The position numbers were made by a program, and so were the translations under genes. Positions 12,173 through 34,619 of a DNA stretch of 56,870 nucleotides are shown here, in pieces. The stretch comes from a virus (lineage: Duplodnaviria > Heunggongvirae > Uroviricota > Caudoviricetes), in IMG/VR virus record IMGVR_UViG_2850796239_000009, one strand, 5' to 3'. The notes under the pieces were generated by a model. That model was not told the origin of the DNA, ran no database searches, and was given only the letters and a program-made list of their open reading frames with translations. The first letter of the stretch is position 1; every line of letters begins with the position of its first letter.

Positions 12173-12349
12173 CGCGGGTTTTCGCTATTTATGAAAATTT
12201 TCCGGTTTAAGGCGTTTCCGTTCTTCTTCGTCATAACTTAATGTTTTTATTTAAAATACCCTCTGAAAAGAAAGGAAACGACAGGTGCTGAAAGCGAGCT
12301 TTTTGGCCTCTGTCGTTTCCTTTCTCTGTTTTTGTCCGTGGAATGAACA

Positions 12350-14998: not shown

Positions 14999-15026
14999 AA
15001 ACGTCCACCATTCCCACCCTTCTGGG

Positions 15027-16326
15027 CTGAGGGATCCCCACAAAATTACTGCTAATAAACCAGCACCATATTTCGGTAGGTTCTGGACAGATGGTTTAGA
15101 ACTGTGCTCAGTACTGTTCGTCTTAAAATAAGTGGCGAGTGTCGAAGAACATTCTTCGCTAACGTCAGATATGAGATAACCCGCCGGGATTTAATGCTGT
15201 TAGCCTGATATTTCAGGTGTAACCCTTTATTTTCAGCGTGATAACCGAGTAACCACATTACGATAGTGCTCAACGTTGCCAGCAGACTCAGAACCAGAAT
15301 TCTTCCTGTTGAACGACTTTTGCTGGCCCGAAGACCAAATCCGAAGCGCCCGTTCTTTTCATCACGAAAGTTTTGCTCAATCTGCATTCGCCGACTGTAT
15401 AACTTGATGATTTCTCGCGCTCTGAAGTCATTTGTACTGCTGAAGATCAACCAGGCTTCTTTTGCTGATTTGCTCTGTTCTTTGTCTGTTTTGTTTAAAC
15501 CACTCTGACCTTTCGAACGTTTCTTTTTTCGCCCTTTTGCCGATTTCTTATAGGTGTAAAAATGCCCCGGATGCTTTTTTTCCTTTCTTTAACCAGCCTT
15601 CCAGCCCCCATATATTCCGGTGTTTTACATTCAGGGCTATCCGACACTTTTAACCATCTTTCAGGCGCGTTATCGAGGCAATACTGAACGTTATTTCTGA
15701 TCCGACCAATAAAATCCCAGCCCAGAGAAGTAATATGGTGAAACCATGCGCTCTGAAATCCAGCATCCGTGACAATAATAACCCTGGCATCGGGGGGCAG
15801 GGATTGAGCAAGGGAATCAAGGAAATCATGTTGTATCAATGGATTATTTTGTTTTTCAGAAGGAACAACCTTACTCAATAACGGAATGGAACGCCCGTCA
15901 CACAGAAGGCTGGCACGAAGAACATGATGCTCCTGGGAGGGATAGCCACTCCAGTCTACGGCTATTACACATAAAGATAACTGCCGTGTCAGCATTGAAG
16001 TGATATTCCTGAAAATCATTGGAATATCGCGATGGAGCGCCTCATTACCCATGAGGCGATCAATACGTTTGATCTTATTCTTAACTTGTGCATTACCCGG
16101 CAAAAAACGTCCGATACTGGTCAGCGTCAGAGATGCTCCGTTGATTAACGCCACTGTGGCATCCATCAGGGCATTTTGTCGGTACTGATGAAATGGTGCT
16201 AAGGCATCCCGGAAGAAATTCTGACATACTTTATGAACAGGCATAGCAGTGATCTCATTGAATTGTTGGCACAAATCAGTAGATCACATAATGCTATGTC
16301 TGTCTCGTTTTCTGGGGATTCCTCAG
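15027..16326 (-). mobile_element. IS10-like (IS4-family) insertion sequence, copy 1, inserted in portal gene B
   Basis: Inverted ends CTGAGGGATCCCCA / CTGAGGAATCCCCA; 9-bp target duplication CCTTCTGGG at 15018-15026 and 16327-16335. Confidence 0.8.
15052..16274 (-). pseudogene. IS10-like transposase (copy 1), frame broken at a G run
   Basis: Two ORFs (15495-16274, 15052-15450) together match the intact 407-aa copy at 34672-35895; copy 1 has CCGGGG where copy 2 has CCGGGGG. Confidence 0.7.
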
Positions 16327-17133
16327 CCTTCTGGGGCCGGACGGCATGACATCGCTGCGTGAATATGCCGGTTATCACGGCGGTGGCAGCGGATTTGGTG
16401 GGCAGTTGCGGGCGTGGAACCCACCGGGTGAAAGTGTGGATGCAGCCCTGCTGCCCAACTTTACCCGTGGCAATGCCCGCGCAGACGATCTGGTACGCAA
16501 TAACGGCTATGCCGCCAACGCCATCCAGTTGCATCAGGATCATATCGTCGGGTCTTTTTTCCGGCTCAGTCATCGCCCAAGCTGGCGCTATCTGGGCATC
16601 GGGGAGGAAGAAGCCCGTGCCTTTTCCCGCGAGGTTGAAGCGGCATGGAAAGAGTTTGCCGAGGATGACTGCTGCTGCATTGACGTTGAGCGAAAACGCA
16701 CGTTTACCATGATGATTCGGGAAGGTGTGGCCATGCACGCCTTTAACGGTGAACTGTTCGTTCAGGCCACCTGGGATACCAGTCCCTCGCGACTGTTCCG
16801 GACACAGTTCCGGATGGTCAGCCCGAAGCGCATCAGCAACCCGAACAATACCGGCGACAGCCGGAACTGCCGTGCCGGTGTGCAGATTAATGACAGCGGT
16901 GCGGCGCTGGGATATTACGTCAGCGAGGACGGCTATCCTGGCTGGATGCCGCAGAAATGGACATGGATACCCCGTGAGTTACCCGGCGGGCGCGCCTCGT
17001 TCATTCACGTTTTTGAACCCGTGGAGGACGGGCAGACCCGCGGTGCAAATGTGTTTTACAGCGTGATGGAGCAGATGAAGATGCTCGACACACTGCAGAA
17101 CACGCAGCTGCAGAGCGCCATTGTGAAGGCGAT
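16327..17133 (+). pseudogene. B: Portal protein gpB, middle fragment
   Basis: MTSLREYAGYHGGGSGFGGQLRAWNPP...LQNTQLQSAIVKA matches recalled gpB residues ~15-283; N-terminal stub [11 protein letters not shown] at 14995-15026 is cut off by IS10-like; fragment ends at the satellite junction. Confidence 0.85.
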
Positions 17134-17261
17134 TTATGTCTATCATCTCACCGTAGTTGCCCGCATCGTTCGCCAACTCCACTGAAACCCTTGCTGCGTC
17201 TGGAATGTCGTTTTCCATGCTTTTGATGACCGTTCATCACCCTTCCAGTTTTTCGCGGTTT

Positions 17262-17315
17262 TGTGTATTGCAATGTGTATTGCAAATTGGCGATCGGGAT
17301 GGGTGTGTATTGCAA
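17262..17315 (+). repeat. Three direct TGTGTATTGCAA repeats next to attL (putative integrase arm-type sites)
   Basis: TGTGTATTGCAA at 17262-17273, 17274-17285 and 17304-17315, just upstream of int; two related copies lie near attR. Confidence 0.45.
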
Positions 17316-17333
17316 ATCTCTTGAGGGCTTTTA

Positions 17334-18574
17334 ATGGCTATTGAAAACAAACTCAGTGACAAACTGTTAAAGAGTCTTGTCGGAAAACGGCAGGACAAAC
17401 AAAAAACAATAGCGGATGGGCGCGGGTTGTCTGTGCGTGTAAGCATGGTTGGGGGATCAGCTTTGTTTTTTACTATCGTCTTGGTGGCAGGGAATCCCCT
17501 CCGGTATGGCTTACACTTGGTCGCTATCCTGACATGTCTCTTGCAACGGCCAGGCGCATGCGTGATCAGTGCCGTGAATGGCTGGCTGAAAATCTGGACC
17601 CCCGCAGGCAAATAAAACTTGCTGCCGAAAAAACTATGCAACCAGTGACCGTAAGGGATGCGCTGTTTTACTGGTACGACAATCACGCCACAACAGCCAG
17701 AAAAGAGCATGAATATTTAATAAAACGATTTGAAAAGCATATCTTCCCCTATATCGGTGATATGGCTATAGAACAGTGCAAATTACACACATGGCTTACC
17801 GTCTTTGACAGGATCAAAAAAAATGCGCCTGTTATGTCTGGTGCAATTTTTCTTGATATCAAACAGGCGTTGCGTTTTTGTCGCGTCAGGCAATACATCG
17901 CGTGCGATCCCTTTGGAGATATTAACGTAAGTTATGTCGGGCGCTCATCCGGTATAAGGGATCGCGTTCTTAATATCAATGAAACCGCTGATGTATGGTC
18001 TTATGCTTACGGTAATAATTTGCTAACTCTGTCATCAATATATAACCGAAGAATAATGGTTATCTGCCTGGTGTTTGGTTGCCGACAGCAGGAGGCGAGG
18101 CTATCCACCTGGGACGAATGGGATTTAAAAAACTGGGTATGGACAGTCCCAAAAGAGCACAGCAAAAACAAGGAGGCTATAGTAAGGCCTGTTCCTGACG
18201 GAATAAAACAATGGATCGTTAATCTTTACGCAGAAACAAAAAATCGCGGTTATGTTGTCGGTTGTGCTTTGCAAAGGGCGACAATAACAGGGGCTGCAAA
18301 CAGAATATGCAGGCGTCTTGGTCATGATACTAATGGCTTGTGGTGCATACATGATTTCAGGCGCACATTTTCCACTACGCTTAATGATATGGGGGCGGAT
18401 CCTTATATTGTCGAACTTCTTTTAGGTCATAAAGTGAAAGGGGTTGCTGGTGTTTACAATAAAAGCAGGCATATAAAGAAAAAACTTGAGGTGCTTAATA
18501 TGTGGGTTAATTACCTTAATACGATAGCAGGATTTAACAACAACGTTATCGAGCTTAATAAAGAGGTGGTGTGA
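17334..18574 (+). pseudogene. int: Tyrosine integrase (P4/CP4-57 type), frame broken in a T6 run
   Basis: MAIENKLSDKLLKSLVGKRQDKQKTIADGRGLSVRVS... switches frame at TTTTTT (17466-17471) to ...YRLGGRESPPVWLTLGRYPDMSLATARRMR... with catalytic domain (HDFRRTF, LLGH). Confidence 0.8.
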
Positions 18575-18575
18575 T

Positions 18576-18833
18576 ATGGCAATTTATTCTCTTGTTGATG
18601 AAAACGATTTGCGCACAATGAAGGACATTGATCGGTTCATTCGTGAAAAAGAGTGCATAGCACTTACCACGCTGGCAAACTCAACACGCTGGAAAATGGA
18701 GCAGGCAGGTAAATTCCCGCGACGTATCAAGATCGGTGAACGTGCTGCAGGGTATCGACTTTCAGAGGTTCAGGCATGGATCCGTGGTGAGTGGCATCCT
18801 GGATGGAAACCTGGAAAAACAAAACAGCAATAA
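18576..18833 (+). CDS. AlpA-family HTH regulator / excisionase-like
   Basis: 85-aa ORF with ...ALTTLANSTRWKMEQAGKFPRRIKIGERAAGYRLSEVQAWIRG, the AlpA/Xis MerR-like HTH pattern; immediately follows int. Confidence 0.6.
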   Translation: MAIYSLVDENDLRTMKDIDRFIREKECIALTTLANSTRWKMEQAGKFPRRIKIGERAAGYRLSEVQAWIRGEWHPGWKPGKTKQQ

Positions 18834-18846
18834 CCAGTAAATAATG

Positions 18847-18869
18847 CCCCTCATCACGAGGGGTTTTTT
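18847..18869 (+). terminator. Rho-independent terminator after int-alpA
   Basis: CCCCTC-ATCAC-GAGGGG hairpin followed by TTTTTT. Confidence 0.5.
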
Positions 18870-18889
18870 GTCTATAAGGTAAAAACGCG

Positions 18890-19468
18890 ATGAATAAAAA
18901 TATTGCCGTGACGGGCAAGGGGTACGCTCGTCCAGTGAAAAAATTCTGCGATATTCGTGATCTCGTCGTTCTGCGCTTTGATAGTGTGAACGTTCGTGTG
19001 GTGTATCTGAACGGCGATCCGTGGTTTGTTGCAAAAGATGTTTGTGCTGCGCTGGAACTAACCAATTCGCGTACGGCGTTGCAGATGCTTGATGATGATG
19101 AAAAGGGAGTAAATTTAACTTACACCCCAGGAGGAAATCAGAATATGAGAATTATCTCTGAGTCAGGTTTCTACAAACTAATAGCCCGCAGCCGCAAAGC
19201 AACGACGCCTGGCACATTTGCTCATCGTTTCAGTAACTGGGTATTCAGAAATGTGATACCAGGTATCAGAAAAACGGGGACTTATGGTATCCCGTGGGGT
19301 GCATTACAGGATTTTTCCCGCCGTAAAGAGCAATATCAAATAAGTGCCAGCGAGAAGGGGAGGGAGCTACAGGCATGTAAGCGCAAAAAGCGTGAGCTGG
19401 AGGAAGAAGAAAAAACGCTGATACGTGAATATCAGCCTGAGTTTTACTTTGGTAACCGCATTCAGTGA
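18890..19468 (+). CDS. BRO-N / KilA-N domain protein (antirepressor-like)
   Basis: 192-aa ORF with N-terminal ...LNGDPWFVAKDVCAALELTNSRTALQMLDDDEKG..., the Bro-N domain pattern. Confidence 0.6.
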   Translation: MNKNIAVTGKGYARPVKKFCDIRDLVVLRFDSVNVRVVYLNGDPWFVAKDVCAALELTNSRTALQMLDDDEKGVNLTYTPGGNQNMRIISESGFYKLIARSRKATTPGTFAHRFSNWVFRNVIPGIRKTGTYGIPWGALQDFSRRKEQYQISASEKGRELQACKRKKRELEEEEKTLIREYQPEFYFGNRIQ

Positions 19469-19801
19469 CAAAACAAAGGCGACCGCAAAAGGGTCGCCAG
19501 TGGGAACAAGGGAAAACAAAAGCATCACCAACAATGCCACATTTGCGGCTGGTGGGCAATGTGATCAGTCAGATTTGGTTCGTTCCAAGGTTTGCAACGA
19601 GAGCTTTTTCCTGTGCTCTTTAAGGAATTTCTCAAGAGCAAACGAACAAGGTGCGAATCTTTCTGATTCATGTTCATGCGCTATATTTTTGCGTCGTCTC
19701 TTACGAGTTGGTGATGGTGTTTTGGTTGATTCTGTGTCGCTCATGGTGCTGTCCTGTAAAGCAATGCGCCTGCGTTCCTCAAACTATGGCGCTGATATTG
19801 G

Positions 19802-20107
19802 CTATTCATGCTCTTTGACCTTGCGTCGCTGGAGTTCTTCACGCGCGACGGTGACGAGTTGCCCGATCTCCTCGGCTGCTTTGATGCCGATTTGTTCGAC
19901 CTTAGCCAGGGCATCCAGTGACGACACAAGGGGATTTTCTCCGCTGCCTTCTGCTTGGCGGCGGGCTATTTCTCCGCGCATGGCGGTTACGATAAATCCG
20001 GCATTGCTTTCACCGTCCAGCTTAACGGATTCCATCCCTTGCATAACATCTAGTGGGACTCTGACAGTTGTCAGTTGTGATTTTGCGTTTTTGTTAGCCG
20101 TTGCCAT
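19802..20107 (-). CDS. Putative ribbon-helix-helix DNA-binding regulator
   Basis: 101-aa ORF whose N-terminus (TTVRVPLDVMQGMESVKLDGESNAGFIVTAMRGEIARRQ) has an RHH-like strand-helix-helix pattern; divergent from the downstream operon. Confidence 0.35.
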   Translation of the reverse strand: MATANKNAKSQLTTVRVPLDVMQGMESVKLDGESNAGFIVTAMRGEIARRQAEGSGENPLVSSLDALAKVEQIGIKAAEEIGQLVTVAREELQRRKVKEHE

Positions 20108-20168
20108 TTCTGAAACTCCTAATCATCGGTGTGTTTCAGTATACACAAAAAAAGAAATACAAAAAGCC

Positions 20169-20206
20169 TTGACGTGTGTTTCATGCGCTCATAACATGAA
20201 ACACAC
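20169..20206 (+). promoter_or_regulatory. Putative promoter (-35 TTGACG) overlapped by a 12-bp inverted repeat operator
   Basis: GTGTGTTTCATG-n9-CATGAAACACAC perfect inverted repeat at 20174-20206 in the divergent intergenic region. Confidence 0.35.
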
Positions 20207-20348
20207 CGAAAGGATTGTTGAAATACAAAGAGCAACGCCCCGCAGTGCTGGGAACACATACGGGGCGTCTAACCAACAACGTAAACTAGGCTGTGTCCCT
20301 TAATCATCTGAGCTATAGTAACTGTCTGTTTACACAACATATTGAACT

Positions 20349-20798
20349 ATGGCTCGCTACGACCTTCCCGATGAGGCATGGACCATCATCAAGCCCCTGT
20401 TACCTCCTGAACCCGCCACACCACGGGCCGGACGCCCATGGGCTGAGCACCGTAAAATCATCAATGGCATGTTCTGGGTGTTATGTTCCGGTGCACCATG
20501 GCGCGATTTACCCGAACGATATGGGTCATGGAAAACTGTTTATAACCGCTTTAACCGATGGTCAAAGTCAGGCGTGATTAATATTATTTTCAACAGGTTG
20601 CTTTCGCTACTTGATGCAAACGGCTTTATTGACTGGTCTGCCACCGCGCTGGATGGCAGTAATATCCGGGCGCTGAAATGTGCCGCCGGTGCTCAAAAAA
20701 ACATCCCGATATCGACGGAGATAATGGGCCGGGTCGCTCTCGCGGCGGTTTTGGCACCAAAATCCATCTGGCAACAGACGGAAGTGGCCTCCCGTTAA
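20349..20798 (+). CDS. IS5-family transposase OrfA (copy 2)
   Basis: 149-aa ORF MARYDLPDEAWTIIKPLLPP...; A7 slippery run (GCTCAAAAAAAC) near its end feeds into orfB. Confidence 0.8.
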   Translation: MARYDLPDEAWTIIKPLLPPEPATPRAGRPWAEHRKIINGMFWVLCSGAPWRDLPERYGSWKTVYNRFNRWSKSGVINIIFNRLLSLLDANGFIDWSATALDGSNIRALKCAAGAQKNIPISTEIMGRVALAAVLAPKSIWQQTEVASR

Positions 20799-21193
20799 AT
20801 ATCGTGCTAAGCCCCGGACAAGCTCATGAAAGCCAGTTCGCGCAACGACTTCTGGACGGGATTGGCGTTCAGCGTCAGAACGGCAGCATGAAACGCCGTG
20901 GACATGCGGTACTGGCTGATAAAGCGTATTCAGGGCGCGCATTGCGCAACGAGCTGAAAAATAACGGTATAAAGGCAGTAATCCCCCGAAAGTCAAATGA
21001 GAAAATGGCATCGGATGGACGTGCACAGCTTGATCGTGATGCGTACCGCAATCGTAATGTCGTTGAACGGTGCTTTGGGCGGCTGAAAGAATATCGCCGC
21101 ATCGCCACGCGTTACGACAAAACGGCGAGAAATTACCTGGCGATGGTGAAACTGGGCTGCATCCGACTCTTTTATCAACGCTTACGTAATTAA
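20678..21193 (+). CDS. IS5-family transposase OrfB (DDE domain; likely OrfAB fusion by -1 frameshift)
   Basis: 171-aa ORF overlapping orfA in the -1 frame. Confidence 0.75.
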   Translation: MCRRCSKKHPDIDGDNGPGRSRGGFGTKIHLATDGSGLPLNIVLSPGQAHESQFAQRLLDGIGVQRQNGSMKRRGHAVLADKAYSGRALRNELKNNGIKAVIPRKSNEKMASDGRAQLDRDAYRNRNVVERCFGRLKEYRRIATRYDKTARNYLAMVKLGCIRLFYQRLRN

Positions 21194-21215
21194 GGGACAC
21201 AGCCTAGGAGCCGTT

Positions 21216-21413
21216 ATGGTTGCTGTAAATCATATACCACACCTTGTACACACACAAACGGCCTTTGTGTGGCGTTTTCTGGCACTGAGTGCCGGAGAAT
21301 CTCAAATCATCCACGTAACCGCCTGGACGGAACGCGAAGCGCGTAGCCGTTGCCCGTCCGGTTGTGTTGCTGTATTCGCTGCAAAAATCCGCCAGGGAGT
21401 GAGTCATGCTTAA
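21216..21413 (+). CDS. Hypothetical small protein (satellite operon)
   Basis: 65-aa ORF starting right after the IS5-family copy. Confidence 0.25.
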   Translation: MVAVNHIPHLVHTQTAFVWRFLALSAGESQIIHVTAWTEREARSRCPSGCVAVFAAKIRQGVSHA

Positions 21414-21591
21414 AACCTTCCGTGTATTTGCCCGAGCTGTTAACCCAATAGGCCACACAATTGGTATCGCTCAGAATGTGAAGGCTGTTAATGTTCAGAC
21501 GGCTATTGCTGCGGTGAGAAGCGAATCATCAGAATATGGCTTATCACAAGTCATTATTTCAGCAGTGTATGAATTAAAAGAGGTGCATTAA
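21406..21591 (+). CDS. Hypothetical small protein (satellite operon)
   Basis: 61-aa ORF overlapping its neighbours. Confidence 0.3.
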   Translation: MLKTFRVFARAVNPIGHTIGIAQNVKAVNVQTAIAAVRSESSEYGLSQVIISAVYELKEVH

Positions 21592-21782
21592 TGCAGGAAA
21601 TTACATTACACGAAGCCGCTGAACGTGCGCACCAGACAGAAATTATTTGCCGCCTTCTTGAGGTATACCCGAACAAAATTACAGATGCTGATATATCCGC
21701 ACTGGCGAGCCTACTGGCGCGTCTTTCGGGAAGTGTCGCTAGTTTTTTGATTGAGGAAGAAAGTAAGCTGGTGGGGGATTAA
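21591..21782 (+). CDS. Hypothetical small protein (satellite operon)
   Basis: 63-aa ORF with overlapping stop/start. Confidence 0.3.
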   Translation: MQEITLHEAAERAHQTEIICRLLEVYPNKITDADISALASLLARLSGSVASFLIEEESKLVGD

Positions 21783-22004
21783 ATGAATACAGAACGGGAA
21801 GTCTTTTTTAAATTGTTAGCATGTGCAGAAAGTTCATTAACTTTAAATAATTCAGCAAAAGCAATATTAAATATGTGGCTTGATTGCATAAATGACAATG
21901 AAGATGCAAATATTGCTTATGGCCTGTTGTCACTTATTGATGAATCAGCAGAAAAACTCAATGACGCAATAAATAGTGCCCTGCTATCAAATAAGTCGAG
22001 TTAA
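21783..22004 (+). CDS. Hypothetical small protein (satellite operon)
   Basis: 73-aa ORF. Confidence 0.3.
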   Translation: MNTEREVFFKLLACAESSLTLNNSAKAILNMWLDCINDNEDANIAYGLLSLIDESAEKLNDAINSALLSNKSS

Positions 22005-22021
22005 GTCGAGGAATAAATAAT

Positions 22022-22321
22022 ATGGAAATGAAAAATTCTGGCTTTATTGCCAGCGGCCCCGCTCGACCTGAATTTATGAACGGCGATATTTACCGCGATA
22101 AATACGGCGGCACGGTAACGATTAAAGGCGTGGCAGAACGGCGCATCACTTACCGCCGTGAGGGGTATAGCTATGACTGCGTGATGCCTGTTTATCAGTT
22201 CCGGCGTGATTTTTCCCTGGTATATGCCGCACCCCGCAGTAAGCCCATCAGCAGGGAAAAAGCGTGGGGAAATATCCAGAAAATGAAAACCATGATTAAC
22301 GGATTCAGAGGTAAAAAATGA
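22022..22321 (+). CDS. Hypothetical protein (satellite operon)
   Basis: 99-aa ORF whose stop overlaps the pri-rep start. Confidence 0.3.
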   Translation: MEMKNSGFIASGPARPEFMNGDIYRDKYGGTVTIKGVAERRITYRREGYSYDCVMPVYQFRRDFSLVYAAPRSKPISREKAWGNIQKMKTMINGFRGKK

Positions 22322-24071
22322 AACTGGCACCGAACGTAAAACAGCAGTCACGCGGCATAAAACACAAAGGAACAGAAGTAATTATTTTTGCGGGTAGTGA
22401 TGCCTGGGCACACGCGAAACAATGGCAGGAACATGATGCGCGTATGGCCGGAGATAATGAGCCTCCTGTGTGGCTTGGGGAGCAGCAGCTATCCGAACTG
22501 GATAATCTGCAAATTGTGCCGGAAGGCCGAAAATCAGCACGCATATACAGGGCCGGATATCTTGCGCCTGTAATGATAAAGGCGATTGGTCAGAAGCTGG
22601 CGGCAGCAGGCGTACAGGATGCAAATTTTTATCCTGAGGGTATGCACGGCCAGGAGGTGCAGAACTGGCGCGAATATCTGGCCCGTGAACGCCAGAATCT
22701 TTCTGATGGTCTGGTCATTGAGCTTCCGGTAAAGCAAAAGGCGCAACTTTCGCAGATGGCGGACAGTGAGCGCGCGCAGTTGCTTGCCGATCGCTTTGAT
22801 GGCGTTTGCGTACATCCTGAAAGTGAAATCGTTCACGTATGGCGCGGCGGGGTATGGTGTCCGGTCAGCACAATGGAACTTAGCCGCGAAATGGTGGCGA
22901 TCTATTCAGAGCACAGGGCCACTTTCAGCAAGCGCGTAATCAATAACGCCGTGGAAGCGTTAAAAGTTATTGCCGAACCAATGGGCGAGCCGTCTGGCGA
23001 TTTGCTGCCGTTCGCCAATGGTGCGCTTGACCTGAAAACGGGGGAATTTTCCCCGCACACGCCGGAGAACTGGATCACCACGCACAACGGCATTGAGTAC
23101 ACGCCACCAGCACCAGGGGAGAACATCCGCGATAACGCGCCAAACTTTCATAAATGGCTTGAGCACGCAGCCGGAAAAGACCCGCGCAAGATGATGCGTA
23201 TATGTGCCGCGCTGTACATGATTATGGCGAACCGGTACGACTGGCAGATGTTTATTGAGGCCACCGGAGACGGCGGGAGCGGTAAAAGTACATTCACACA
23301 CATAGCCAGCCTTCTGGCAGGGAAACAGAACACGGTAAGCGCTGAAATGACATCGCTTGATGATGCTGGTGGACGTGCGCAGGTTGTCGGGAGTCGTCTT
23401 ATCGTCCTGGCTGACCAGCCGAAATATACAGGCGAAGGAACGGGCATCAAGAAAATCACAGGCGGCGACCCGTGGAAATTAACCCGAAATATGAAAAGCG
23501 TTTCACGGCGGTAATCAGGGCGGTGGTGCTGGCGACCAACAACAACCCGATGATATTCACCGAACGGGCCGGAGGTGTGGCACGTCGTCGCGTGATTTTC
23601 CGTTTCGACAATATCGTCAGTGAGGCCGAAAAAGACAGGGAGCTACCGGAAAAGATTGCGGCTGAAATCCCCGTTATTATCCGCCGATTGCTGGCGAACT
23701 TTACCGACCCTGAGAAGGCACGGGCTTTACTACTGGAACAGCGTGACGGTGATGAAGCACTGGCAATAAAGCAACAGACGGATCCGGTTATTGAGTTTTG
23801 CCAGTTCCTGAATTTTCTGGAGGAAGCGCGCGGCCTGATGATGGGTGGCGGTGGTGATTCAGTGAAGTACACGACCAGGAACAGCCTTTACCGCGTCTAT
23901 CTGGCGTTTATGGCATACGCGGGCAGGAGCAAACCGCTAAACGTGGCTGAGTTCAGCAAGGCCATGAAGCCAGCGGCGAAAGTTTACGGGCATGAATATA
24001 TTACGCGAAAAGTTAAGGGAGTAACGCAGACCAACGCAATTACAACAGACGATTGCGACGCGTTTTTATAA
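22318..24071 (+). pseudogene. Primase-helicase (pri-rep, D5/P4-alpha-like), frame broken near 23470
   Basis: Walker A GDGGSGKST; ...KITGGDP switches frame to VEINPKYEKRF...NNNP (helicase-like C-terminus); two ORFs 22318-23514 and 23472-24071. Confidence 0.7.
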
Positions 24072-24087
24072 TTTTTTGTAAAAGCCA

Positions 24088-24325
24088 TCTACCCCATCTA
24101 CCTGAACGAAATAAACGCATATTATTCAACATGATAAGTGGGTATAGGGCTAGGTAGAAGGCTAATAAAAGCTCTCTACCTCTTCTACCTGATTTTATCA
24201 GTTTCAGGTAGCAGGGTAGACGGCAGGTAGAGGAGTCAAAAAAGCTATCTACCCGCTGAAAGCGGCGCCATTACTGACATGATGAGCATTCGGGTAGATG
24301 GGTAGAGGGGGGAGGCACAACTAAA
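24088..24325 (+). repeat. Iteron cluster / putative satellite replication origin
   Basis: At least ten TCTACC/GGTAGA-type repeats in both orientations with AT-rich spacers, directly downstream of pri-rep. Confidence 0.5.
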
Positions 24326-24355
24326 AACTTTTTAAACGAGGGGGGGTGAAAATAA

Positions 24356-24670
24356 ATGCGCATACATAAAAATCACTTAACAAACATGCCAGCCGAAAAC
24401 ATGAATCAGGGGCGACAAATGACCAAAATTCGCAGAGACAGAACACAGGCAAAATATAAAGCGTTAGACATGACAGAGCTTTCCTTAAAGGTGGCAATCA
24501 AAGCGATAGACCACCACACACGGGCAGGATACGCGAAGGAACATCCCGACCTGATAAGCGCATTCATGACCACAGCAGCGGCAAACTTTGCCACGCTGAC
24601 AGAACGGGAGATTGCCGAAGCGGAACAGGTGACAACCATCAATGTTAAAACCGGAGAGCAGACAGCATGA
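24356..24670 (+). CDS. Hypothetical protein
   Basis: 104-aa ORF; no recognisable motif. Confidence 0.3.
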   Translation: MRIHKNHLTNMPAENMNQGRQMTKIRRDRTQAKYKALDMTELSLKVAIKAIDHHTRAGYAKEHPDLISAFMTTAAANFATLTEREIAEAEQVTTINVKTGEQTA

Positions 24671-25089
24671 CAGCACAGATAGCGGCTTACGGGCGGCTGG
24701 TGGCTGACCCGCAGTTAAAGACCACCAGCAAAGGGACACAAATGGCGATGGCGAGTATGGCGGTTCCCCTGCCGTGCAGCCAGGCAGATGACGGAACGGC
24801 GACGATGTGGTTATCCGTCCTGGCGTTTGGCAGACAGGCCGACGCACTGGCAAAACACCACAAAGGCGAACTGGTGAGCGTGGCGGGTAACATGCAGGTA
24901 AGCCAGTGGACAGGCCAGAACGGCGAAACGCGGCGGGGCTGGCAGGTTATCGCAGACAGCGTAATCAGTGCGCGAACGGCGCGACCGGGCGGCAAAAAAG
25001 GCCAGCAGGGGCAGGCCACTGACGCACTGAACAGGGCAAAACAACAGTCGGGGAATGATGATCCGTACGGCGATAATATACCGTTTTAA
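24667..25089 (+). CDS. SSB-like single-stranded DNA-binding protein
   Basis: 140-aa ORF with Gly/Gln-rich linker and acidic C-terminal tip DDPYGDNIPF resembling the SSB tail DDDIPF. Confidence 0.5.
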   Translation: MTAQIAAYGRLVADPQLKTTSKGTQMAMASMAVPLPCSQADDGTATMWLSVLAFGRQADALAKHHKGELVSVAGNMQVSQWTGQNGETRRGWQVIADSVISARTARPGGKKGQQGQATDALNRAKQQSGNDDPYGDNIPF

Positions 25090-25300
25090 ATTCTGCAAAC
25101 AAAAAGATGCCGGAAAAAAATAGATTTTCCGGCATGCTACATAAATCCCGACCAAAGGAAGTAAATACATTAACACGAATTATCAGCACTGAAGTTGTTA
25201 CGGCATATTTTATACAACATTGCACTTGGTTGCATGTGTTCGCATAGCAGACATCGGTAATAGAATATATTCACAATTATTTGTAATGAATGTAAAGAGG

Positions 25301-26347
25301 ATGAGTATGGTTGATTTATATTCGCCTACACAGCTTGTGCAGGTGGCTAATGCTGAAGATGTGCAAAAAAATTAAATGCGTTGTTTACCAGTTTGTTTTT
25401 CACTCGCTCGGTAATGTTTGAATCGAGAGACATTATTCTTGATACGATCGACGATCCAAATATCCCGATCGCGGCGTTTTGCTCTCCTATGGTGGGCAGT
25501 AAAGTTTCACGAGATGAGGGATACGAATCAAAAACAATTCGTCCAGGTTATATGAAGCCGAAAAGCAGCATTGATCCAAATAAGTTAGCTGTGCAGCCCT
25601 GCTGGTGTGTCACCTGAGCAATACAATGCTTTTGGGGCGCGTAATATTAAAGTTAAACAGGCGATTGTAAATCAGGCTAAAGCTATTCGTGCACGTATTG
25701 AATGGCTTGCTGTTCAGGCAATCACAACGGGGAAAAATATCATTGAGGGCGATGGTATTGAACGTTATGAGCTGGACTGGAATATAAAACCACAAAATAT
25801 CATCACTCAGTCTGGCGGTACTGAGTGGTCAGGTAAGGATAAAGAAACTTTTGATCCAAATGATGATATTGAGAGCTACGCAGAATTTAGTGAGGGCGTC
25901 ACTAATATCATCATTATGGGTGGTAATGTATGGAAGAAATACCGTTCATTCAGAGCGATAAAAGAGGCTTTGGATACCCGTCGTGGTTCTAATTCCGAAC
26001 TGGAAACGGCCCTTAAAGACCTTGGTGATTCGGTGAGTTTTAAAGGGTATATGGGCGATGTTGCGATTGTTGTTTACAGCGGGCGTTATACCGACGAGGA
26101 CGGAACAGAAAAACATTTCCTTGATCCTGATTTGATGGTGCTTGGCAATACGGCTCTTCAGGGGATTGTCGCCTATGGCGGTATTCAGGATCCGGAGCTA
26201 ATCCGAATGGGGCTGACTAAAGCCGAACTTGCACCGAAAAACTATATTGTGCCTGGTGATCCGGCTATTGAATATGTGCAGACACATTCAGCACCACAGC
26301 CAATACCGGCCCGCATCAATCGTTTTGTTACCGTTCGCATTGGCTAA
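25301..26347 (+). pseudogene. Major capsid protein paralog (lambda gpE-like) encoded by the satellite; two homopolymer frame breaks
   Basis: MSMVDLYSPTQLVQVANAEDVQK (compare gpE MSMYTTAQLLAANEQKF), then ...ITQSGGTEWS...DTRRGSNSELETALKDLG...GDVAIVVYSG... alignable with the helper gpE at 31416-32441; breaks at the A7 run 25365-25371 and CCC at 25597-25599. Confidence 0.75.
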
Positions 26348-26356
26348 GGGGGAGCA

Positions 26357-26698
26357 ATGGCTACTCATTACACTGAACTCATGGCTGGCACTGAAGCACT
26401 GGTGACTACGCTGGGGATATTTTCAGCTAATAAAGGGGTAATTCCTGCATTTACGCCACTGATGCAGGAAGATGCAACAGGTGCACTGGTGGTATGGGAT
26501 GGTTCGAGCGTAGGTAAAGCGGTTTATGTTTCCGCTGTACAAATCGACACCGCGAAAAAAACACAGGCTCAGGTCTATAAGACAGGTGTCTTAAATGTTG
26601 ATGCTCTGAACTGGCCTGAGTCTGTTAAAGAACTGTCAGTAAAGGTTGCAGCGTTTGTTGGCTCAGGTATTTCTGTTCAGCCGCTGGCTCGTGTGTAA
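26357..26698 (+). CDS. Head decoration protein paralog (lambda gpD-like) encoded by the satellite
   Basis: 113-aa ORF with ...AFTPLMQEDATGALVVWDGSSVGKAVYVSAVQID... alignable with helper gpD (...[35 protein letters not shown]...). Confidence 0.7.
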   Translation: MATHYTELMAGTEALVTTLGIFSANKGVIPAFTPLMQEDATGALVVWDGSSVGKAVYVSAVQIDTAKKTQAQVYKTGVLNVDALNWPESVKELSVKVAAFVGSGISVQPLARV

Positions 26699-26709
26699 AG
26701 GGGGATACA

Positions 26710-27093
26710 ATGCAGAATGATTACAATGACCTTAAGCCAATTGCCGAAATGATGTACCCGAATCCAGCTGTAGAGGAATTAAAAGCTATCGCTGACAAAA
26801 TGTGTTTAAGCGAGCGCCTTGTTGATATGAATCAGGTGATGGAAATTACAACCCTGAGTCGTCGTACACTGCTAAACCTTGAGGCTAGTGGAGAGTTCCC
26901 GGAGCGTGTGCAGGTTACGGAAGGGCGTAAGGCCTGGTATTTAAGTGAAGTGATCGACTGGATAAATAATATTCCTCGCGCTTCTGAATATTGCCGCGTA
27001 CCTGTCCCAAAAAAGCCAGATGCGGCGCTATGCCTCAAGATTGAGCGTGTACGCCGCAATGCACGGGATGGTCGCTATAAGCTGATTGGTTGA
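26710..27093 (+). CDS. AlpA-like HTH DNA-binding protein
   Basis: 127-aa ORF with ...MEITTLSRRTLLNLEASGEFPERVQVTEGRKAWYLSEVIDWINN, a MerR/AlpA-like HTH pattern. Confidence 0.45.
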   Translation: MQNDYNDLKPIAEMMYPNPAVEELKAIADKMCLSERLVDMNQVMEITTLSRRTLLNLEASGEFPERVQVTEGRKAWYLSEVIDWINNIPRASEYCRVPVPKKPDAALCLKIERVRRNARDGRYKLIG

Positions 27094-27149
27094 TGAAATT
27101 AGGGCCCGCTCTGGCTGGCGGGTCCTTTCCGGTGATCCGGTAGGCTACG

Positions 27150-27161
27150 GGGCGGCGACCT
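27150..27161 (+). other. Satellite cos site (cosN GGGCGGCGACCT, helper-like cosQ, divergent cosB)
   Basis: GGGTCCTTTCCGGTGATCCGGTAGGCTACGGGGCGGCGACCTCGCGGGTTTTCGCTATTTATGA matches the helper cos at 12131-12195 almost base for base, then diverges. Confidence 0.75.
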
Positions 27162-27282
27162 CGCGGGTTTTCGCTATTTATGAGCCTTTTTCGGGTGCTG
27201 GTGGTGGTTTTGTTGTTCGCTCTATCTCTATGAATAAAAAGGAAAAGATAAAGCCAATACACCAACCTGAAACATTACTTAA

Positions 27283-27837
27283 GTGGGGATATTGATGAAA
27301 TCGCACCTGATGAACAAAAAAAACATGGCGCAAAGCTGCCGTGTAAGTGCGACAGCGTTCGACAAGTGGGGAGTGACTCCCGTTGAACGTAAAGGCCGCG
27401 AGGCGTTTTATGATGTTGCCAGCGTAATAGACAATCGGGTTAGCAATGCAATTAACCAGATTACAGACGACAAAGGCGAGATTGATGATGATGAACTCCT
27501 ACGAGTCAGGATCAGATTGCTGACAGCACAGGCAGAGGCGCAGGAGCTTAAAAACGAGCGCGAACGCGGCGACGTTATTGATACAGCGTTTTGTATATAC
27601 GTGCTTTCAAAATTGGCGAGTCAGATTTCTTCAATCATGGACAGCCTGCCGCTTGCCATGACAAGGAAGTTTCCCGACATGAAGCCGTCTATGCTGGATG
27701 GACTGAAAAAAGAAGTTATCAGAGCCTGTAACGCATGCGCAAAACTTGACGAAAACATACCGCTGATGCTGTCCGATTATCTGATGGAAACTGCCGGAAA
27801 CGTACCGGATAAGTTGCAGCCGAATAAAGATAAGTAA
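27283..27837 (+). CDS. Satellite terminase small subunit (Nu1-like; divergent N-terminal domain)
   Basis: C-terminal part ...LTAQAEAQELKNERERGDVIDTAFCIYVLSKLASQISSIMDSLPL... parallels Nu1 ...[46 protein letters not shown]...; true start may be Met-10 (27310). Confidence 0.7.
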   Translation: MGILMKSHLMNKKNMAQSCRVSATAFDKWGVTPVERKGREAFYDVASVIDNRVSNAINQITDDKGEIDDDELLRVRIRLLTAQAEAQELKNERERGDVIDTAFCIYVLSKLASQISSIMDSLPLAMTRKFPDMKPSMLDGLKKEVIRACNACAKLDENIPLMLSDYLMETAGNVPDKLQPNKDK

Positions 27838-27848
27838 CGTAGTACGCT

Positions 27849-28130
27849 ATGACTGAATCCGAAATACTGCGATTAATCCGCCGTGCTTGTGGAATCAGCA
27901 AGCAGCATGACGAACAGGCCACGCAGCCGGACAGCGTGACCGCAGATAATTATGTGCGTGTAGTGGCTGAGGTGATGCGCCGTGACGGTATTGAGCTTAA
28001 CGGCGTGGATATGCGCAACATACGAACAAGAGTCCTTGAGTTGCTGGCATATCGTCGCCGTTCTCAACAACGGAGGGAGAGCGCGAAAAATACTTACCAG
28101 TGGAAGAAGCCGGAACGATTGCGGCGGTAA
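27849..28130 (+). CDS. Hypothetical protein
   Basis: 93-aa basic ORF after terS. Confidence 0.3.
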   Translation: MTESEILRLIRRACGISKQHDEQATQPDSVTADNYVRVVAEVMRRDGIELNGVDMRNIRTRVLELLAYRRRSQQRRESAKNTYQWKKPERLRR

Positions 28131-28560
28131 CTTGCTGATATTCCCGATAACGCAAAATTGCGCTGGCTGACTTGTTGCATTGCAAAAAGTTAAGCAGGAA
28201 GGCACGGCCTGTAAGATGGGATGCAGTAAGTAGTTCAAGGCTACCTTGTGCTGGCACGCACAGTTAAGCCGTCGGTGCTGGATATCCCCCACTGGGGAAA
28301 AGCTGGCTACATCCCTCACATCTGAGGACTGATAACGCGACATTGCGCTGGCTGGCAAAGTGCAAAATTGCACGATGGCCTAACCCATTGATTATTTCGA
28401 AAACCTGCAATGCAGGAAATCGGGGAAGTAAGCCTAAGCTATTGATTGTTTCGAAAACCCCCATTGGGGGATGTCGGGAAAGTAAGACTAACCCATTGAT
28501 TCTTCCACAATCCTCAATTTGAGGAGGCCGGAACGTCTACATAGCTGCATCGCCGTAATG
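28130..28560 (+). repeat. Array of direct repeats each containing a different perfect palindrome (covarying stems)
   Basis: Three tandem ~54-bp units (28383-28545) share ATTGATTnTTyC...TCGGGrAAGTAAG and hold CCTGCA-A-TGCAGG, CCCCCA-T-TGGGGG, CCTCAA-T-TTGAGG; related pair GATAACGCnAnATTGCGCTGGCTG at 28146 and 28331 with CGCAA-AA-TTGCG, TTGCA-T-TGCAA, GTGCAA-AA-TTGCAC. Confidence 0.6.
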
Positions 28561-28843
28561 ATGATTCAGCCCACCAGCCAAATCAGCACAGCAACGACAG
28601 AATAGCCCGACACAGAAAAACCACGAATATGGGGTTTTTGTTATGACATGGTCATGATGACCACTCATACAAAACAGGTAAAGCCCACCAGCCTGATTAA
28701 AGGTTAACCGGAAAAAAGCCAGGTATCCAATCTCGATATGGGGATCCCTATATCGACATTAACGCCCACTAAAACTGTGCATATATGCATAGAAAAAGCA
28801 TCCACCAGCTTTATGACGGATGCCGCTCATCTTATAAATAATC

Positions 28844-28866
28844 GTGTATTGCAGTGTGTATTGCGA
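28844..28866 (+). repeat. Two GTGTATTGC repeats next to attR (arm-type-like)
   Basis: CGTGTATTGCAGTGTGTATTGCGA, related to the TGTGTATTGCAA repeats at attL. Confidence 0.4.
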
Positions 28867-28946
28867 CTCCTTTAAACGATAGGTCTGAGCATTCGTAATG
28901 TACTGTTTTTAAATTTTATTTTTTCCTGTCTTTTCATAAAGGCGAT

Positions 28947-29718
28947 GTATGCCGCCACCATTGAGAGTGAGCTGGATACGCAGTCAGCGATGGATTTTAT
29001 TCTGGGCGCGAACAGTAAGGAGCAGCGGGACAAGCTGACCGGCTGGATTGGTGAAATTGCCGCGTATTACGCCGCAGCACCGGTCCGTCTGGGAGGCGCA
29101 AAAGTGCCGCACCTGATGCCGGGGGACTCACTGAACCTGCAGACGGCTCAGGACACGGATAACGGCTACTCCGTGTTTGAGCAGTCACTGTTGCGGTATA
29201 TCGCTGCCGGGCTGGGTGTCTCGTATGAGCAGCTTTCCCGGAATTACGCCCAGATGAGCTACTCCACGGCACGGGCCAGTGCGAACGAGTCGTGGGCGTA
29301 CTTTATGGGGCGGCGAAAATTCGTCGCATCCCGTCAGGCGAGCCAGATGTTTCTGTGCTGGCTGGAAGAGGCCATCGTTCGCCGCGTGGTGACGTTACCT
29401 TCAAAAGCGCGTTTCAGCTTTCAGGAAGCCCGCAGCGCCTGGGGGAACTGTGACTGGATAGGCTCCGGTCGTATGGCCATCGATGGTCTGAAAGAAGTAC
29501 AGGAAGCGGTGATGCTGATAGAAGCCGGACTGAGTACCTACGAGAAAGAGTGCGCAAAACGCGGTGACGACTATCAAGAAATTTTTGCCCAGCAGGTCCG
29601 TGAAACGATGGAGCGCCGTGCAGCCGGTCTTAAACCGCCCGCCTGGGCGGCTGCGGCATTTGAATCCGGACTGCGACAATCAACAGAGGAGGAGAAGAGT
29701 GACAGCAGAGCTGCGTAA
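28947..29718 (+). pseudogene. B: Portal protein gpB, C-terminal fragment
   Basis: MYAATIESELDTQSAMDFILGANSKEQRDKLTGW...LRQSTEEEKSDSRAA matches recalled gpB residues ~284-533; resumes exactly where 16327-17133 stops. Confidence 0.85.
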
Positions 29719-31018
29719 TCTCCCGCATATTGCCAGCATGGCTTTTAATGAGCCGCTGATGCTTGAACCCGCCTATGCGCGGGTTTTCTTTTGTGCGCTT
29801 GCAGGCCAGCTTGGGATCAGCCGCCTGACGGATGCGGTGTCCGGTGACAGCCTGACTGCCGGAGAGGCACCCGCGACGCTGGCGTTATCCGTTAATGATG
29901 ACGGACCACGACAGGCCCGCAGTTATCAGGTCATGAACGGCATCGCCGTGCTGCCGGTTTCCGGCACGCTGGTCAGCCGGACGCGGGCGCTGCAGCCGTA
30001 TTCGGGGATGACCGGTTACAACGGCATTATCGCCCGTCTGCAACAGGCTGCCAGCGACCCGATGGTGGACGGCATTCTGCTGGATATGGACACGCCCGGC
30101 GGAATGGTGGCAGGGGCATTTGACTGCGCTGACATCATCGCCCGTGTGCGTGACATAAAGCCGGTATGGGCGCTGGCCAATGACATGAACTGCAGCGCAG
30201 GTCAGCTGCTTGCCAGTGCCGCCTCCCGGCGTCTGGTCACGCAGACCGCCCGGACAGGCTCCATCGGCGTCATGATGGCTCACAGTAATTACGGTGCTGC
30301 GCTGGAGAAACAGGGCGTGGAAATCACGCTGATTTACAGCGGCAGCCATAAGGTGGATGGCAACCCCTACAGCCATCTACCGGATGATGTCCGGGAAACA
30401 CTGCAGTCCCGGATGGATGCAACCCGCCGGATGTTTGCACAGAAGGTGTCGGCATATACCGGCCTGTCCGTGCAGGCTGTGCTGGATACCGAGGCTGCAG
30501 TGTACAGCGGTCAGGAGGCCATTGATGCCGGACTGGCTGATGAACTTGTTAACAGTACCGATGCGATCACCGTCATGCGTGATGCACTGGATGCACGTAA
30601 ATCCCGTCTCTCAGGAGGGCGAATGACCAAAGAGACTCAATCAACAACTGTTTCAGCCACTGCTTCGCAGGCTGACGTTACTGGCGTGGTGCAAGCGACG
30701 GAGGGCGAGAACGCCAGCGCTGCGCAGCCGGACGTGAACGCGCAGATCACCGCAGCGGTTGCGGCAGAAAACAGTCGCATTATGGGGATCCTCAACTGTG
30801 AGGAGGCTCACGGACGCGAAGAACAGGCACGCGTGCTGGCCGAAACCCCTGGTATGACCGTGGAAACGGCCCGCCGCATTCTGGCAGCTGCACCACAGAG
30901 TGCACAGGCGCGCAGTGACACTGCGCTGGATCGTCTGATGCAGGGGGCACCGGCACCGCTGGCTGCAGGTAACCCGGCATCTGATGCCGTTAACGATTTG
31001 CTGAACACACCAGTGTAA
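29699..31018 (+). CDS. C: Minor capsid protein C / prohead protease (with nested scaffold Nu3 frame)
   Basis: GTG start; (M)TAELRNLPHIASMAFNEPLMLEPAYARVFF...DLLNTPV, 439 aa, matches recalled lambda gpC. Confidence 0.9.
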   Translation: MTAELRNLPHIASMAFNEPLMLEPAYARVFFCALAGQLGISRLTDAVSGDSLTAGEAPATLALSVNDDGPRQARSYQVMNGIAVLPVSGTLVSRTRALQPYSGMTGYNGIIARLQQAASDPMVDGILLDMDTPGGMVAGAFDCADIIARVRDIKPVWALANDMNCSAGQLLASAASRRLVTQTARTGSIGVMMAHSNYGAALEKQGVEITLIYSGSHKVDGNPYSHLPDDVRETLQSRMDATRRMFAQKVSAYTGLSVQAVLDTEAAVYSGQEAIDAGLADELVNSTDAITVMRDALDARKSRLSGGRMTKETQSTTVSATASQADVTGVVQATEGENASAAQPDVNAQITAAVAAENSRIMGILNCEEAHGREEQARVLAETPGMTVETARRILAAAPQSAQARSDTALDRLMQGAPAPLAAGNPASDAVNDLLNTPV

Positions 31019-31027
31019 GGGATGTTT

Positions 31028-31360
31028 ATGACGAGCAAAGAAACCTTTACCCATTACCAGCCGCTGGGCAACAGTGACCCGGCTCATACCGCAACCGCGC
31101 CCGGCGGATTGAGTGCGAAAGCGCCTGCAATGACCCCGCTGATGCCGGACACCTCCACCCGTAAGCTGGTTGCGTGGGATGGCACCACCGACGGTGCTGC
31201 CGTTGGCATTCTTGCGGTTGCTGCTGACCAGACCAGCACCACGCTGACGTTCTACAAGTCCGGCACGTTCCGTTATGAGGATGTGCTCTGGCCGGAGGCT
31301 GCCAGCGATGAGACGAAAAAACGGACCGCGTTTGCCGGAACGGCAATCAGCATCCTTTAA
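31028..31360 (+). CDS. D: Head decoration protein gpD
   Basis: [27 protein letters not shown]...; followed by a GCCGCCTGTGCGGC hairpin. Confidence 0.9.
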
Positions 31361-31415
31361 CCTTACCCTTCATCACTAAAGGCCGCCTGTGCGGCTTTTT
31401 TTACGGGATTTTTTT

Positions 31416-32441
31416 ATGTCGATGTACACAACCGCCCAGCTGCTGGCGGCAAATGAGCAGAAATTTAAGTTTGATCCGCTGTTTCTGCGTCTCTTTTTCC
31501 GTGAGAGCTATCCCTTCACCACGGAGAAAGTCTATCTCTCACAAATTCCGGGACTGGTAAACATGGCGCTGTACGTTTCGCCGATTGTTTCCGGTGAGGT
31601 TATCCGTTCCCGTGGCGGATCCACCTCTGAATTTACACCGGGATATGTCAAGCCCAAGCATGAGGTGAATCCGCAGATGACCCTGCGTCGCCTGCCGGAT
31701 GAAGATCCGCAGAATCTGGCGGACCCGGCTTACCGCCGCCGTCGCATCATCCTGCAGAACATGCGAGACGAAGAGCTGGCCATTGCTCAGGTCGAAGAGA
31801 TGCAGGCCGTTTCTGCCGTGCTCAAGGGCAAATACACCATGACCGGTGAAGCCTTCGATCCGGTTGAGGTGGATATGGGCCGCAGTGCGGCGAACAACAT
31901 CACGCAGTCCGGCGGCACGGAGTGGAGCAAGCGTGACAAGTCCACGTATGACCCGACCGACGATATCGAAGCCTACGCGCTGAACGCCAGCGGCGTGGTG
32001 AATATCATCGTGTTTGACCCGAAAGGCTGGGCGCTGTTCCGTTCCTTCAAAGCCGTCAGGGAGAAGCTGGATACCCGTCGCGGCTCTCATTCCGAACTGG
32101 AGACAGCGGTAAAAGACCTGGGCAAAGCGGTGTCTTATAAGGGAATGTATGGCGATGTGGCCATCGTCGTGTATTCCGGACAGTACGTGGAAAACGGCGT
32201 CAAAAAGAACTTCCTGCCGGACAACACGATGGTGCTGGGTAACACTCATGCACGCGGTCTGCGCTCCTATGGCTGTATTCAGGATGCGGATGCATTGAGT
32301 GAGGGTATTAATGCGTCTCCCCGTTATCCGAAAAACTGGAAGACATCCGGCGATCCGGCGCGAGAGTTCACCATGATTCAGTCAGCACCGCTGATGCTGC
32401 TGGCTGATCCTGATGAGTTCGTGGCCGTTCAACTGGCGTAA
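31416..32441 (+). CDS. E: Major capsid protein gpE
   Basis: MSMYTTAQLLAANEQKFKFDPLFLRLFFRESYPFTTEKVY..., 341 aa, matches recalled lambda gpE. Confidence 0.95.
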   Translation: MSMYTTAQLLAANEQKFKFDPLFLRLFFRESYPFTTEKVYLSQIPGLVNMALYVSPIVSGEVIRSRGGSTSEFTPGYVKPKHEVNPQMTLRRLPDEDPQNLADPAYRRRRIILQNMRDEELAIAQVEEMQAVSAVLKGKYTMTGEAFDPVEVDMGRSAANNITQSGGTEWSKRDKSTYDPTDDIEAYALNASGVVNIIVFDPKGWALFRSFKAVREKLDTRRGSHSELETAVKDLGKAVSYKGMYGDVAIVVYSGQYVENGVKKNFLPDNTMVLGNTHARGLRSYGCIQDADALSEGINASPRYPKNWKTSGDPAREFTMIQSAPLMLLADPDEFVAVQLA

Positions 32442-32523
32442 TCATGGCCCTTCGGGGCCATTTTCTCTCTGTGGAGGAGTCCATGACGAAAGTAAGCGCT
32501 CCGAGAAGTACGTAGCGTAAGGA

Positions 32524-34124: not shown

Positions 34125-34143
34125 TCCCTTGTTTTATCACGGG

Positions 34144-34491: not shown

Positions 34492-34619
34492 CGGATACCC
34501 CCTTTCATTTCGCGGATTAGCGCCCGTAACAGTTCCGGAGTGAGAGGGTCAAACAGTTTTACCACACCTGATTTAAGATGCAGCTCGCACCGTGGGACGT
34601 TTCCGGGAGCCCCCTCAGG

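Follow-up and report, generated by a model that had tools for sequence, protein, structure and literature searches.

The window (the whole stretch of 56,870 nucleotides that we analysed) is E. coli DNA. It is collinear with EC93, to which it is 99.9% identical in this region. In EC93, a 10.9-kb unit whose genes all point rightward interrupts the portal gene of a lambdoid prophage, with one half of that gene on either side. The 5' part of this island encodes an integrase (int), a regulator of the AlpA type, Bro-N, YlcI-like and Icd-like proteins, three small ORFs, DUF4222, and pri-rep, whose product is labelled "DNA primase family protein" (584 aa) in EC93. After a gap come a small ORF (annotated as a hypothetical protein), a single-stranded DNA-binding protein (SSB), the major capsid protein, a head decoration protein, an AlpA-like HTH protein, and a Nu1-like small terminase. 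As in other Gram-negative PICIs, which measure about 10-15 kb and carry packaging genes of phage origin, int, alpA, and pri-rep are co-oriented, and the repeat array that is our subject lies directly 3' of pri-rep. [quoted passage not shown] Helper-embedded PICIs have been described and their portal-gene sites listed (PMC10111431). In 11capE, the one such island that was followed experimentally, the excised island replicated weakly or not detectably in two out of three repeats (PMC10111431). The island is co-oriented with the portal gene, and a split portal gene is common to many E. coli genomes.

Relative to EC93, the window has three additional insertions (Table 1). The island also has a cos site, and the 66-bp stretch that it shares with the prophage carries lambda cosQ/cosN sequence (GGGCGGCGACCT). 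Right after this stretch, in cosB, the copies of island and prophage diverge, beside the genes for the island's AlpA-like HTH and Nu1-like TerS proteins. Just inside both ends of the island are copies of TGTGTATTGCAA, which are likely to be arm-type sites for the integrase. Near the right end (28380-28525), a 54-bp unit (CTAACCCATTGATT...) is present in three tandem copies, and a small GC-rich hairpin closes each copy. These units have no match in Rfam, and neither does anything else in the island at E ≤ 0.1.

Table 1. Features of the island and of its putative origin, in window coordinates.
Feature	Coordinates	Strand	Remarks
Island	17137-28940		portal fragments at about 16303-17136 and 28945-29718
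pri-rep	22318-24071	+	P4-alpha-family SF3 helicase and origin-binding protein; 584 aa if intact
Putative origin region	24072-24355		non-coding gap from pri-rep to the next gene; 284 bp; no conserved ORF
Exact TCTACC sites	24088, 24097, 24175, 24184, 24248	+
Exact TCTACC sites	24153, 24215, 24226, 24293, 24301	-
One-mismatch sites	24141 (TATACC), 24207 (GCTACC)	-	in addition to the 10 exact sites
Module A (crr-like)	24088-24189		six sites; >> [AT-rich] << >>
Module A, first three sites	24088-24093, 24097-24102, 24141-24146	+, +, -	third site degenerate (TATACC)
Module A, last three sites	24153-24158, 24175-24180, 24184-24189	-, +, +
AT-rich spacer of module A	24104-24139		36 bp; candidate for the first strand opening
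Module B (P4-ori-like)	24207-24306		six sites; <<< > [45] <<
Module B, first three sites	24207-24212, 24215-24220, 24226-24231	-, -, -	first site GCTACC
Module B, last three sites	24248-24253, 24293-24298, 24301-24306	+, -, -
Conserved block GCGCCATTACTG	24265-24276	+	non-iteron; in the long spacer of module B
Conserved block AAAACTTTTTAAACGA, G-run and ATG	24324-24358	+	from conservation and ORFs
Island cos	27118-27183		62 of 66 bases identical to the prophage cosQ/cosN at 12129-12194
TGTGTATTGCAA repeats	17262, 17274, 17304, 28855		just inside both island ends
Insertion absent from EC93	15026-16318		IS4-family element at the start of the portal gene; transposase frameshifted
Insertion absent from EC93	20290-21204		IS5-family element in the island, between the YlcI-like and Icd-like genes
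Insertion absent from EC93	32492-36555		IS66 element in the head genes of the prophage; an IS4-family element is nested in it
Single-base contractions	23468, 24306, 25364, 28293, 17450		in pri-rep and elsewhere

Pri-Rep matches D5_N, DUF5906, and Pox_D5 in Pfam, as well as TIGR01613 (P4-family primase C-terminal domain; 109 bits, with a cutoff of 108.7). Residues 141-573 are 40% identical to residues 324-756 of the alpha protein of phage P4 (434 aa; BLASTP E = 8e-112). For the helicase ATPase core there is a match to PDB chain 7OLA (E = 3.7e-15), which was deposited under the name "DNA primase", and residues 488-576 match the origin-binding winged helix of P4 alpha (PDB 1KA8; E = 8e-6). Pri-Rep thus has the C-terminal winged-helix origin-binding domain of an initiator of the P4 alpha family. 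The N-terminal zinc-finger/TOPRIM primase domain of alpha is absent, and there is an unrelated 140-aa N-terminus in its place: the BLASTP match to alpha spans residues 141-573 only, residues 1-150 have no match in Pfam, and comparing the N-terminal 140 residues to the P4/Morganella primase domain with hhalign gave a probability of 0.1%. (The AlphaFold single-sequence model of this N-terminus had a pLDDT of 41, which is too low for a fold search.) This domain does not detectably resemble the primase domain of alpha, so calling this protein Pri-Rep may mislead. A search for homologues with the Pri-Rep protein returned near-identical E. coli proteins only. Pri-rep is also a mosaic: as seen in loci L074, L070, and L079 from the scan described below, the part encoding the N-terminal 140 residues (22318-22740) recombines separately from the parts for the helicase and the winged helix.

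Alignment to the intact copy in EC93 shows that pri-rep is split in the window into two ORFs (22318-23514 and 23472-24071), because a run of four Cs at about 23468 has lost one base. Homopolymer contractions of 1 bp make up five of the nine gap positions relative to EC93 over 16318-32492; they also break the island's capsid gene and int, and one of them (G7 to G6) lies just after the last iteron. Given this share of contractions, the frameshift in pri-rep is more likely to be a sequencing or assembly error than gene decay. If the frameshift is real, then the origin would fire only with Pri-Rep provided in trans, from another island.

The original prediction was that a dense cluster of short repeats in both orientations, just downstream of the primase-helicase gene, is the origin of a satellite. 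Exact copies of TCTACC or its complement GGTAGA number 15 in the window, which is about the number expected from shuffling (mean 14). Ten of these 15 copies are at 24088-24306, and the other 56.6 kb contain five. In first-order Markov simulations of the window (n = 200), no 240-bp stretch had more than three copies. Similarly, shuffles of the 284-bp gap (n = 5,000) had 0.13 copies on average and three at most, versus the ten that we observed. So the cluster is genuine: its density is well over chance by the very comparison to a shuffled background that had been proposed as a check. If one mismatch is allowed, then the gap contains exactly 12 sites. Across 170 sites from 16 variants, the consensus of the iteron is YYNTCTACCY; the repeats had been described as being of the CATCTACC type, which is true of just a few copies. 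The cluster begins 17 bp past the stop codon of pri-rep (24071), so its location relative to the primase-helicase gene was also correct. AT-rich spacers had been claimed as well. The gap as a whole is 43% G+C; AT-richness is clear in the spacer at 24104-24139 (20-bp windows with 75-80% A+T) and moderate in three other, short spacers, but the 45-bp spacer at 24254-24292 is not AT-rich.

The repeats do not lie within a gene, so neither of the two findings that would have refuted the original prediction was obtained. All six frames of the gap are interrupted by stop codons, variants of the gap differ by 1-nt indels, and the position and frame of the longest open stretch vary from one variant to another, mostly with no start codon. 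Nor is any feature annotated there in RefSeq (12 of the 12 E. coli records listed). We considered a minus-strand open stretch of 66 codons that covers the iterons and rejected it as coding, as its single ATG is late and its position and frame vary among the variants. Downstream of the iterons, the conserved block at 24324-24358 is probably the ribosome-binding region and the start of the next gene (ORF 24356-24670), which is followed by ssb (24667-25089; Pfam SSB, E = 5.5e-16). Pattern scans of 24041-24370 for DnaA boxes, IHF sites, and GATC found none, so none of these sites supports the involvement of host factors.

The long spacer of module B contains a conserved block that is not an iteron. 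Among 14 representatives with mutual identity below 95%, CATTACTG is invariant and the whole of GCGCCATTACTG is nearly so. GCGTCATTACTGG is present in the equivalent spacer of L079, despite the different iteron (TGTTCAC) of that locus, and CATTACTG is found within the ori of P4 as well. E. coli DnaG prefers CTG as a template triplet, and the GCGCCATTACTG block contains a CTG; to call it a priming site on that account would be only a guess.

An alignment-based scan of viral contigs identified 80 loci with 53-100% identity in Pri-Rep, and a scan of genome contigs with a single Pri-Rep protein identified 3 more. In the 68 loci of the TCTACC type, the 300 bp past the stop codon contain 10.5 copies of TCTACC on average (range 6-12), while the rest of each locus (about 4.4 kb) contains 0.26 copies on average, which is a roughly 580-fold difference in density. 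In 14 variants with pairwise identities below 95% and with identities to the window as low as 57%, iteron columns were 93% conserved and other columns were 72% conserved (p = 1.5e-12, Mann-Whitney test). The region 22000-25200 matches 1,765 of 5,426 complete E. coli genomes, almost always on the chromosome, and the gap alone matches 543 of them. A megablast search of phage genomes with the same region (22000-25200) gave no match.

The 12 sites fall into two groups of six, which we call modules A and B (Table 1). (We write > for sites on the plus strand and < for sites on the minus strand.) The pattern of module A, with gaps of 9-10, 41-56, 20-23, and 9-11, recurs in 46 variants of the TCTACC type and also in loci L003, L004, and L074, which are of the TGTTCAC/TTCACC type. 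Its AT-rich spacer separates the first pair of sites from the other ten, which is the layout of iterons and AT-rich DNA expected of a Gram-negative PICI origin; an AT-rich spacer of equal length is found at the same place in all of the variants and in the crr of P4. By analogy with PICI and SaPI origins (PMC6092414, PMC9371898), this spacer would be the melting site. In module B, the start-to-start gaps are 8, 11, 22, 45, and 8, as compared to 8, 11, 22, 44, and 8 in L070 and 10, 11, 23, 42, and 8 in L074. Both modules recur with other iterons, namely TGTTCAC (L003), TTCACC (L074), and TGTTCAT (L004). In L068-L071 and L079 the order of the modules is reversed, with the ori-like module preceding the crr-like one and about 90 bp between the two, within the first 300 bp after the stop codon of pri-rep.

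Which part of Pri-Rep would recognize the iterons? Alleles with a P4-like winged helix have repeats of the TGTTCAC/TTCACC type in place of TCTACC. In L068 and L070, the C-terminal domain is only 53-55% identical to that of the window, and TCTACC is retained. The N-terminal domain of L074 is 95% identical to the window's while its C-terminal domain is just 29% identical, and its iteron is TTCACC. Similarly, L070 and L079 are 96% identical in the N-terminal domain and 30% identical in the C-terminal domain, and their iterons are TCTACC and TGTTCAC, respectively. Conversely, L003 and L079 are 48% identical in the N-terminal domain and 73% identical in the C-terminal domain, and both have TGTTCAC. 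Across these alignments, the sequence of the iteron tracks the C-terminal winged helix of Pri-Rep and not the other genes of the island. These natural domain swaps are strong, if indirect, evidence that the winged helix is the reader of the repeats.

The origins described for Gram-negative PICIs have iterons that surround AT-rich DNA and lie right after the 3' end of pri-rep (Fillol-Salom et al. 2018, ISME J, PMC6092414), and the predicted satellite origin matches these in both position and layout. Furthermore, the replicon of EcCICFT073, whose Pri-Rep is 97.8% identical to ours, has been tested. It drives the replication of a plasmid only if both pri-rep and the ori region are present: pKO3-blue with the pri-ori fragment formed colonies at the restrictive temperature, and the delta-pri construct formed none (PMC6092414). 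Deleting the ori significantly lowered the number of colonies, yet not to zero, and deleting pri-rep reduced transfer of the island by about 100-fold (PMC6092414). A deletion primer in the supplement of PMC6092414 confirms the CFT073 sequence that adjoins pri. Because there is a 12-site non-coding array after pri-rep, because its specificity is linked to the winged helix, and because a near-identical replicon has been tested, we conclude that the cluster is very probably the vegetative replication origin of an EcCICFT073-type Gram-negative PICI that lies within a lambdoid prophage's portal gene. That replication from this particular allele would depend on Pri-Rep is suggested by kinship. Points against are that its gap is only 71.5% identical to the tested one and that 11capE, likewise helper-embedded, replicated so poorly after excision.

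We considered other roles for the array. In P4, crr rather than ori is found directly after the alpha gene, and ori is 4.7 kb away (NC_001609); as module A resembles a crr unit, the array could be an accessory site that is bound by Pri-Rep and stimulates replication that starts elsewhere in the island. This seems quite unlikely, as the six sites of module B are patterned and spaced like those of P4 ori, and as the pri-ori fragment of EcCICFT073 replicated a plasmid by itself (PMC6092414). Also, the island (17137-28940) contains no copy of TCTACC outside of the cluster, which implies that there is no second cluster for Pri-Rep to bind. The array might instead be mainly an operator from which Pri-Rep, or the AlpA-like or Bro-N protein, controls pri-rep or the ssb-capsid-terS genes. 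Iteron origins often double as regulatory sites, as in iteron plasmids. The array does lie between co-oriented genes and just upstream of a conserved ribosome-binding region, and P4 ori is just upstream of the sid late operon. However, we found neither a sigma-70-like promoter nor an intrinsic terminator in 23800-24700, the site sequence tracks the winged helix of Pri-Rep instead of other genes of the island, and a replication phenotype was shown for the homologue from CFT073 (PMC6092414). We therefore consider a mainly regulatory array to be very unlikely; the array might have a regulatory role that is secondary.

Satellites carry repeated sites for packaging and for recombination, and this island does use a cos site, so the repeats could also be imagined to be packaging signals (cos or pac) or integrase arm sites, or else to be part of a gene or due to chance. 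We find these ideas hardly credible. The island's cos is elsewhere (Table 1), so the iteron cluster is not the packaging site, and the repeats that resemble arm-type sites are the copies of TGTGTATTGCAA at the island's ends. Chance and coding are refuted by the shuffles, by the stop codons in six frames, and by the absence of annotation.

If the cluster is the origin, then replication might proceed as follows. Induction of the helper phage would switch on the rightward operon of the island, and Pri-Rep would bind the 12 sites via its winged helix. The two six-site groups, which face each other, would each gather the subunits of one hexamer of the SF3 helicase, and the 36-bp AT-rich spacer in module A would open. 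The hexamers would load themselves and unwind the DNA, as has been proposed for the Rep proteins of SaPIs (PMC9371898), and the island's SSB, which is encoded two genes downstream, would coat the single strands. Since P4 alpha's primase domain is missing from Pri-Rep, priming could be due to the host's primase or to the N-terminal domain of Pri-Rep. We infer where the DNA would melt, the stoichiometry, and how primers would be supplied.

In practical terms, a satellite's origin can be recognized from raw sequence alone. For a replicon that is widespread in E. coli, we have pinned down the consensus (YYNTCTACCY), the positions of 12 sites, and the domain that would read them. This should be useful for annotating a gap that is now blank, for predicting which islands can activate each other's origins, and for designing experiments on origin cloning or incompatibility.

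Among known origins, the closest is that of EcCICFT073. The C-terminal domains of the two Pri-Rep proteins are 96.9% identical; in both islands the array begins about 17 bp past the stop codon of pri-rep and has a TCTACC core (11 copies in EcCICFT073); and in both the genes downstream are a small ORF, ssb, capsid, and head decoration. The order of the sites is also shared (>> < >>(>) <<(<) > <<), except that one site has switched groups: it is >> (<)< >> | <<< > << in the window and >> < >>> | (<)<< > << in CFT073. The gaps are just 71.5% identical, as compared to 93% for the last 600 nt of pri-rep. The islands also differ in location, as EcCICFT073 lies between roxA and phoQ and ours is inside a prophage portal gene, and pri-rep is frameshifted in the window. 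Given this kinship of both the origin and the initiator to those that were tested, the feature is a close allele of a type of origin that was already described and tested, and is not a new kind of element.

The SaPI origins are similar in layout: they have 6-12 short iterons right after rep, which flank an AT-rich stretch in equal numbers, and the iterons are read by a C-terminal winged helix, with two hexamers proposed to load on either side (PMC9371898). Our array shares the short iterons directly after the rep gene, the AT-rich stretch, and the C-terminal winged helix as the likely reader. It differs in the host lineage and in the iteron sequences, and the SaPI Rep proteins are distant relatives of Pri-Rep whose similarity is confined to the ATPase core.

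The comparison to P4, which had been proposed as a check, was informative about the architecture of the origin. Our account of P4 draws on its GenBank annotation, on PMC2777425, and on general background. The initiators are homologous, with a helicase and a winged helix in common, although Pri-Rep lacks alpha's zinc-finger/TOPRIM primase domain. The ori of P4 (9310-9413; NC_001609) has six annotated type-1 repeats in the pattern <<< > <<, with gaps of 10, 11, 22, 43, and 10. Module B has this same pattern, with the same number and orientation of sites and with similar spacing (8, 11, 22, 45, and 8). The 120-bp unit of P4 crr has the pattern >> [43] << >, which module A resembles, and like crr, module A is directly after the initiator gene. 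The P4 type-1 repeats are reportedly bound by the alpha protein, in work by Ziegelin et al. in 1993 and by Flensburg & Calendar in 1987. The iterons are similar at the core (TCTACC in the window and TTCACC in P4), but the array in the window has YYNTCTACCY rather than the type-1 iteron TGTTCACC. As judged from these patterns, the array in the window would work like the P4 origin while belonging to a distinct specificity class. Also, P4 has two crr units, and its ori and crr, which are both needed in cis, are split by 4.7 kb; the window has one of each module, adjacent and fused into about 220 bp, with no other cluster in the island. Some relatives (L068-L071 and L079) have the modules in the reverse order, unlike P4.

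In the papers available to us, we found no statement that the ori and crr of P4 are equivalent to a PICI origin. We tentatively suggest, as a reading that is possible rather than probable, that the PICI origin unites, by fusion, both halves of P4's split origin, with module B corresponding to ori and module A to a crr unit; the fusion would exist in either order, and its geometry would have stayed constant while the iteron changed along with the winged helix. If so, then each six-site group would be a template for one SF3 hexamer, the array would be a loading pad for a double hexamer, and P4's need for a distant crr, a puzzle of long standing, would reflect the same two-hexamer mechanism acting through DNA looping. 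The correspondence with P4 ori and crr thus offers a simple and testable structural reading of both origins.
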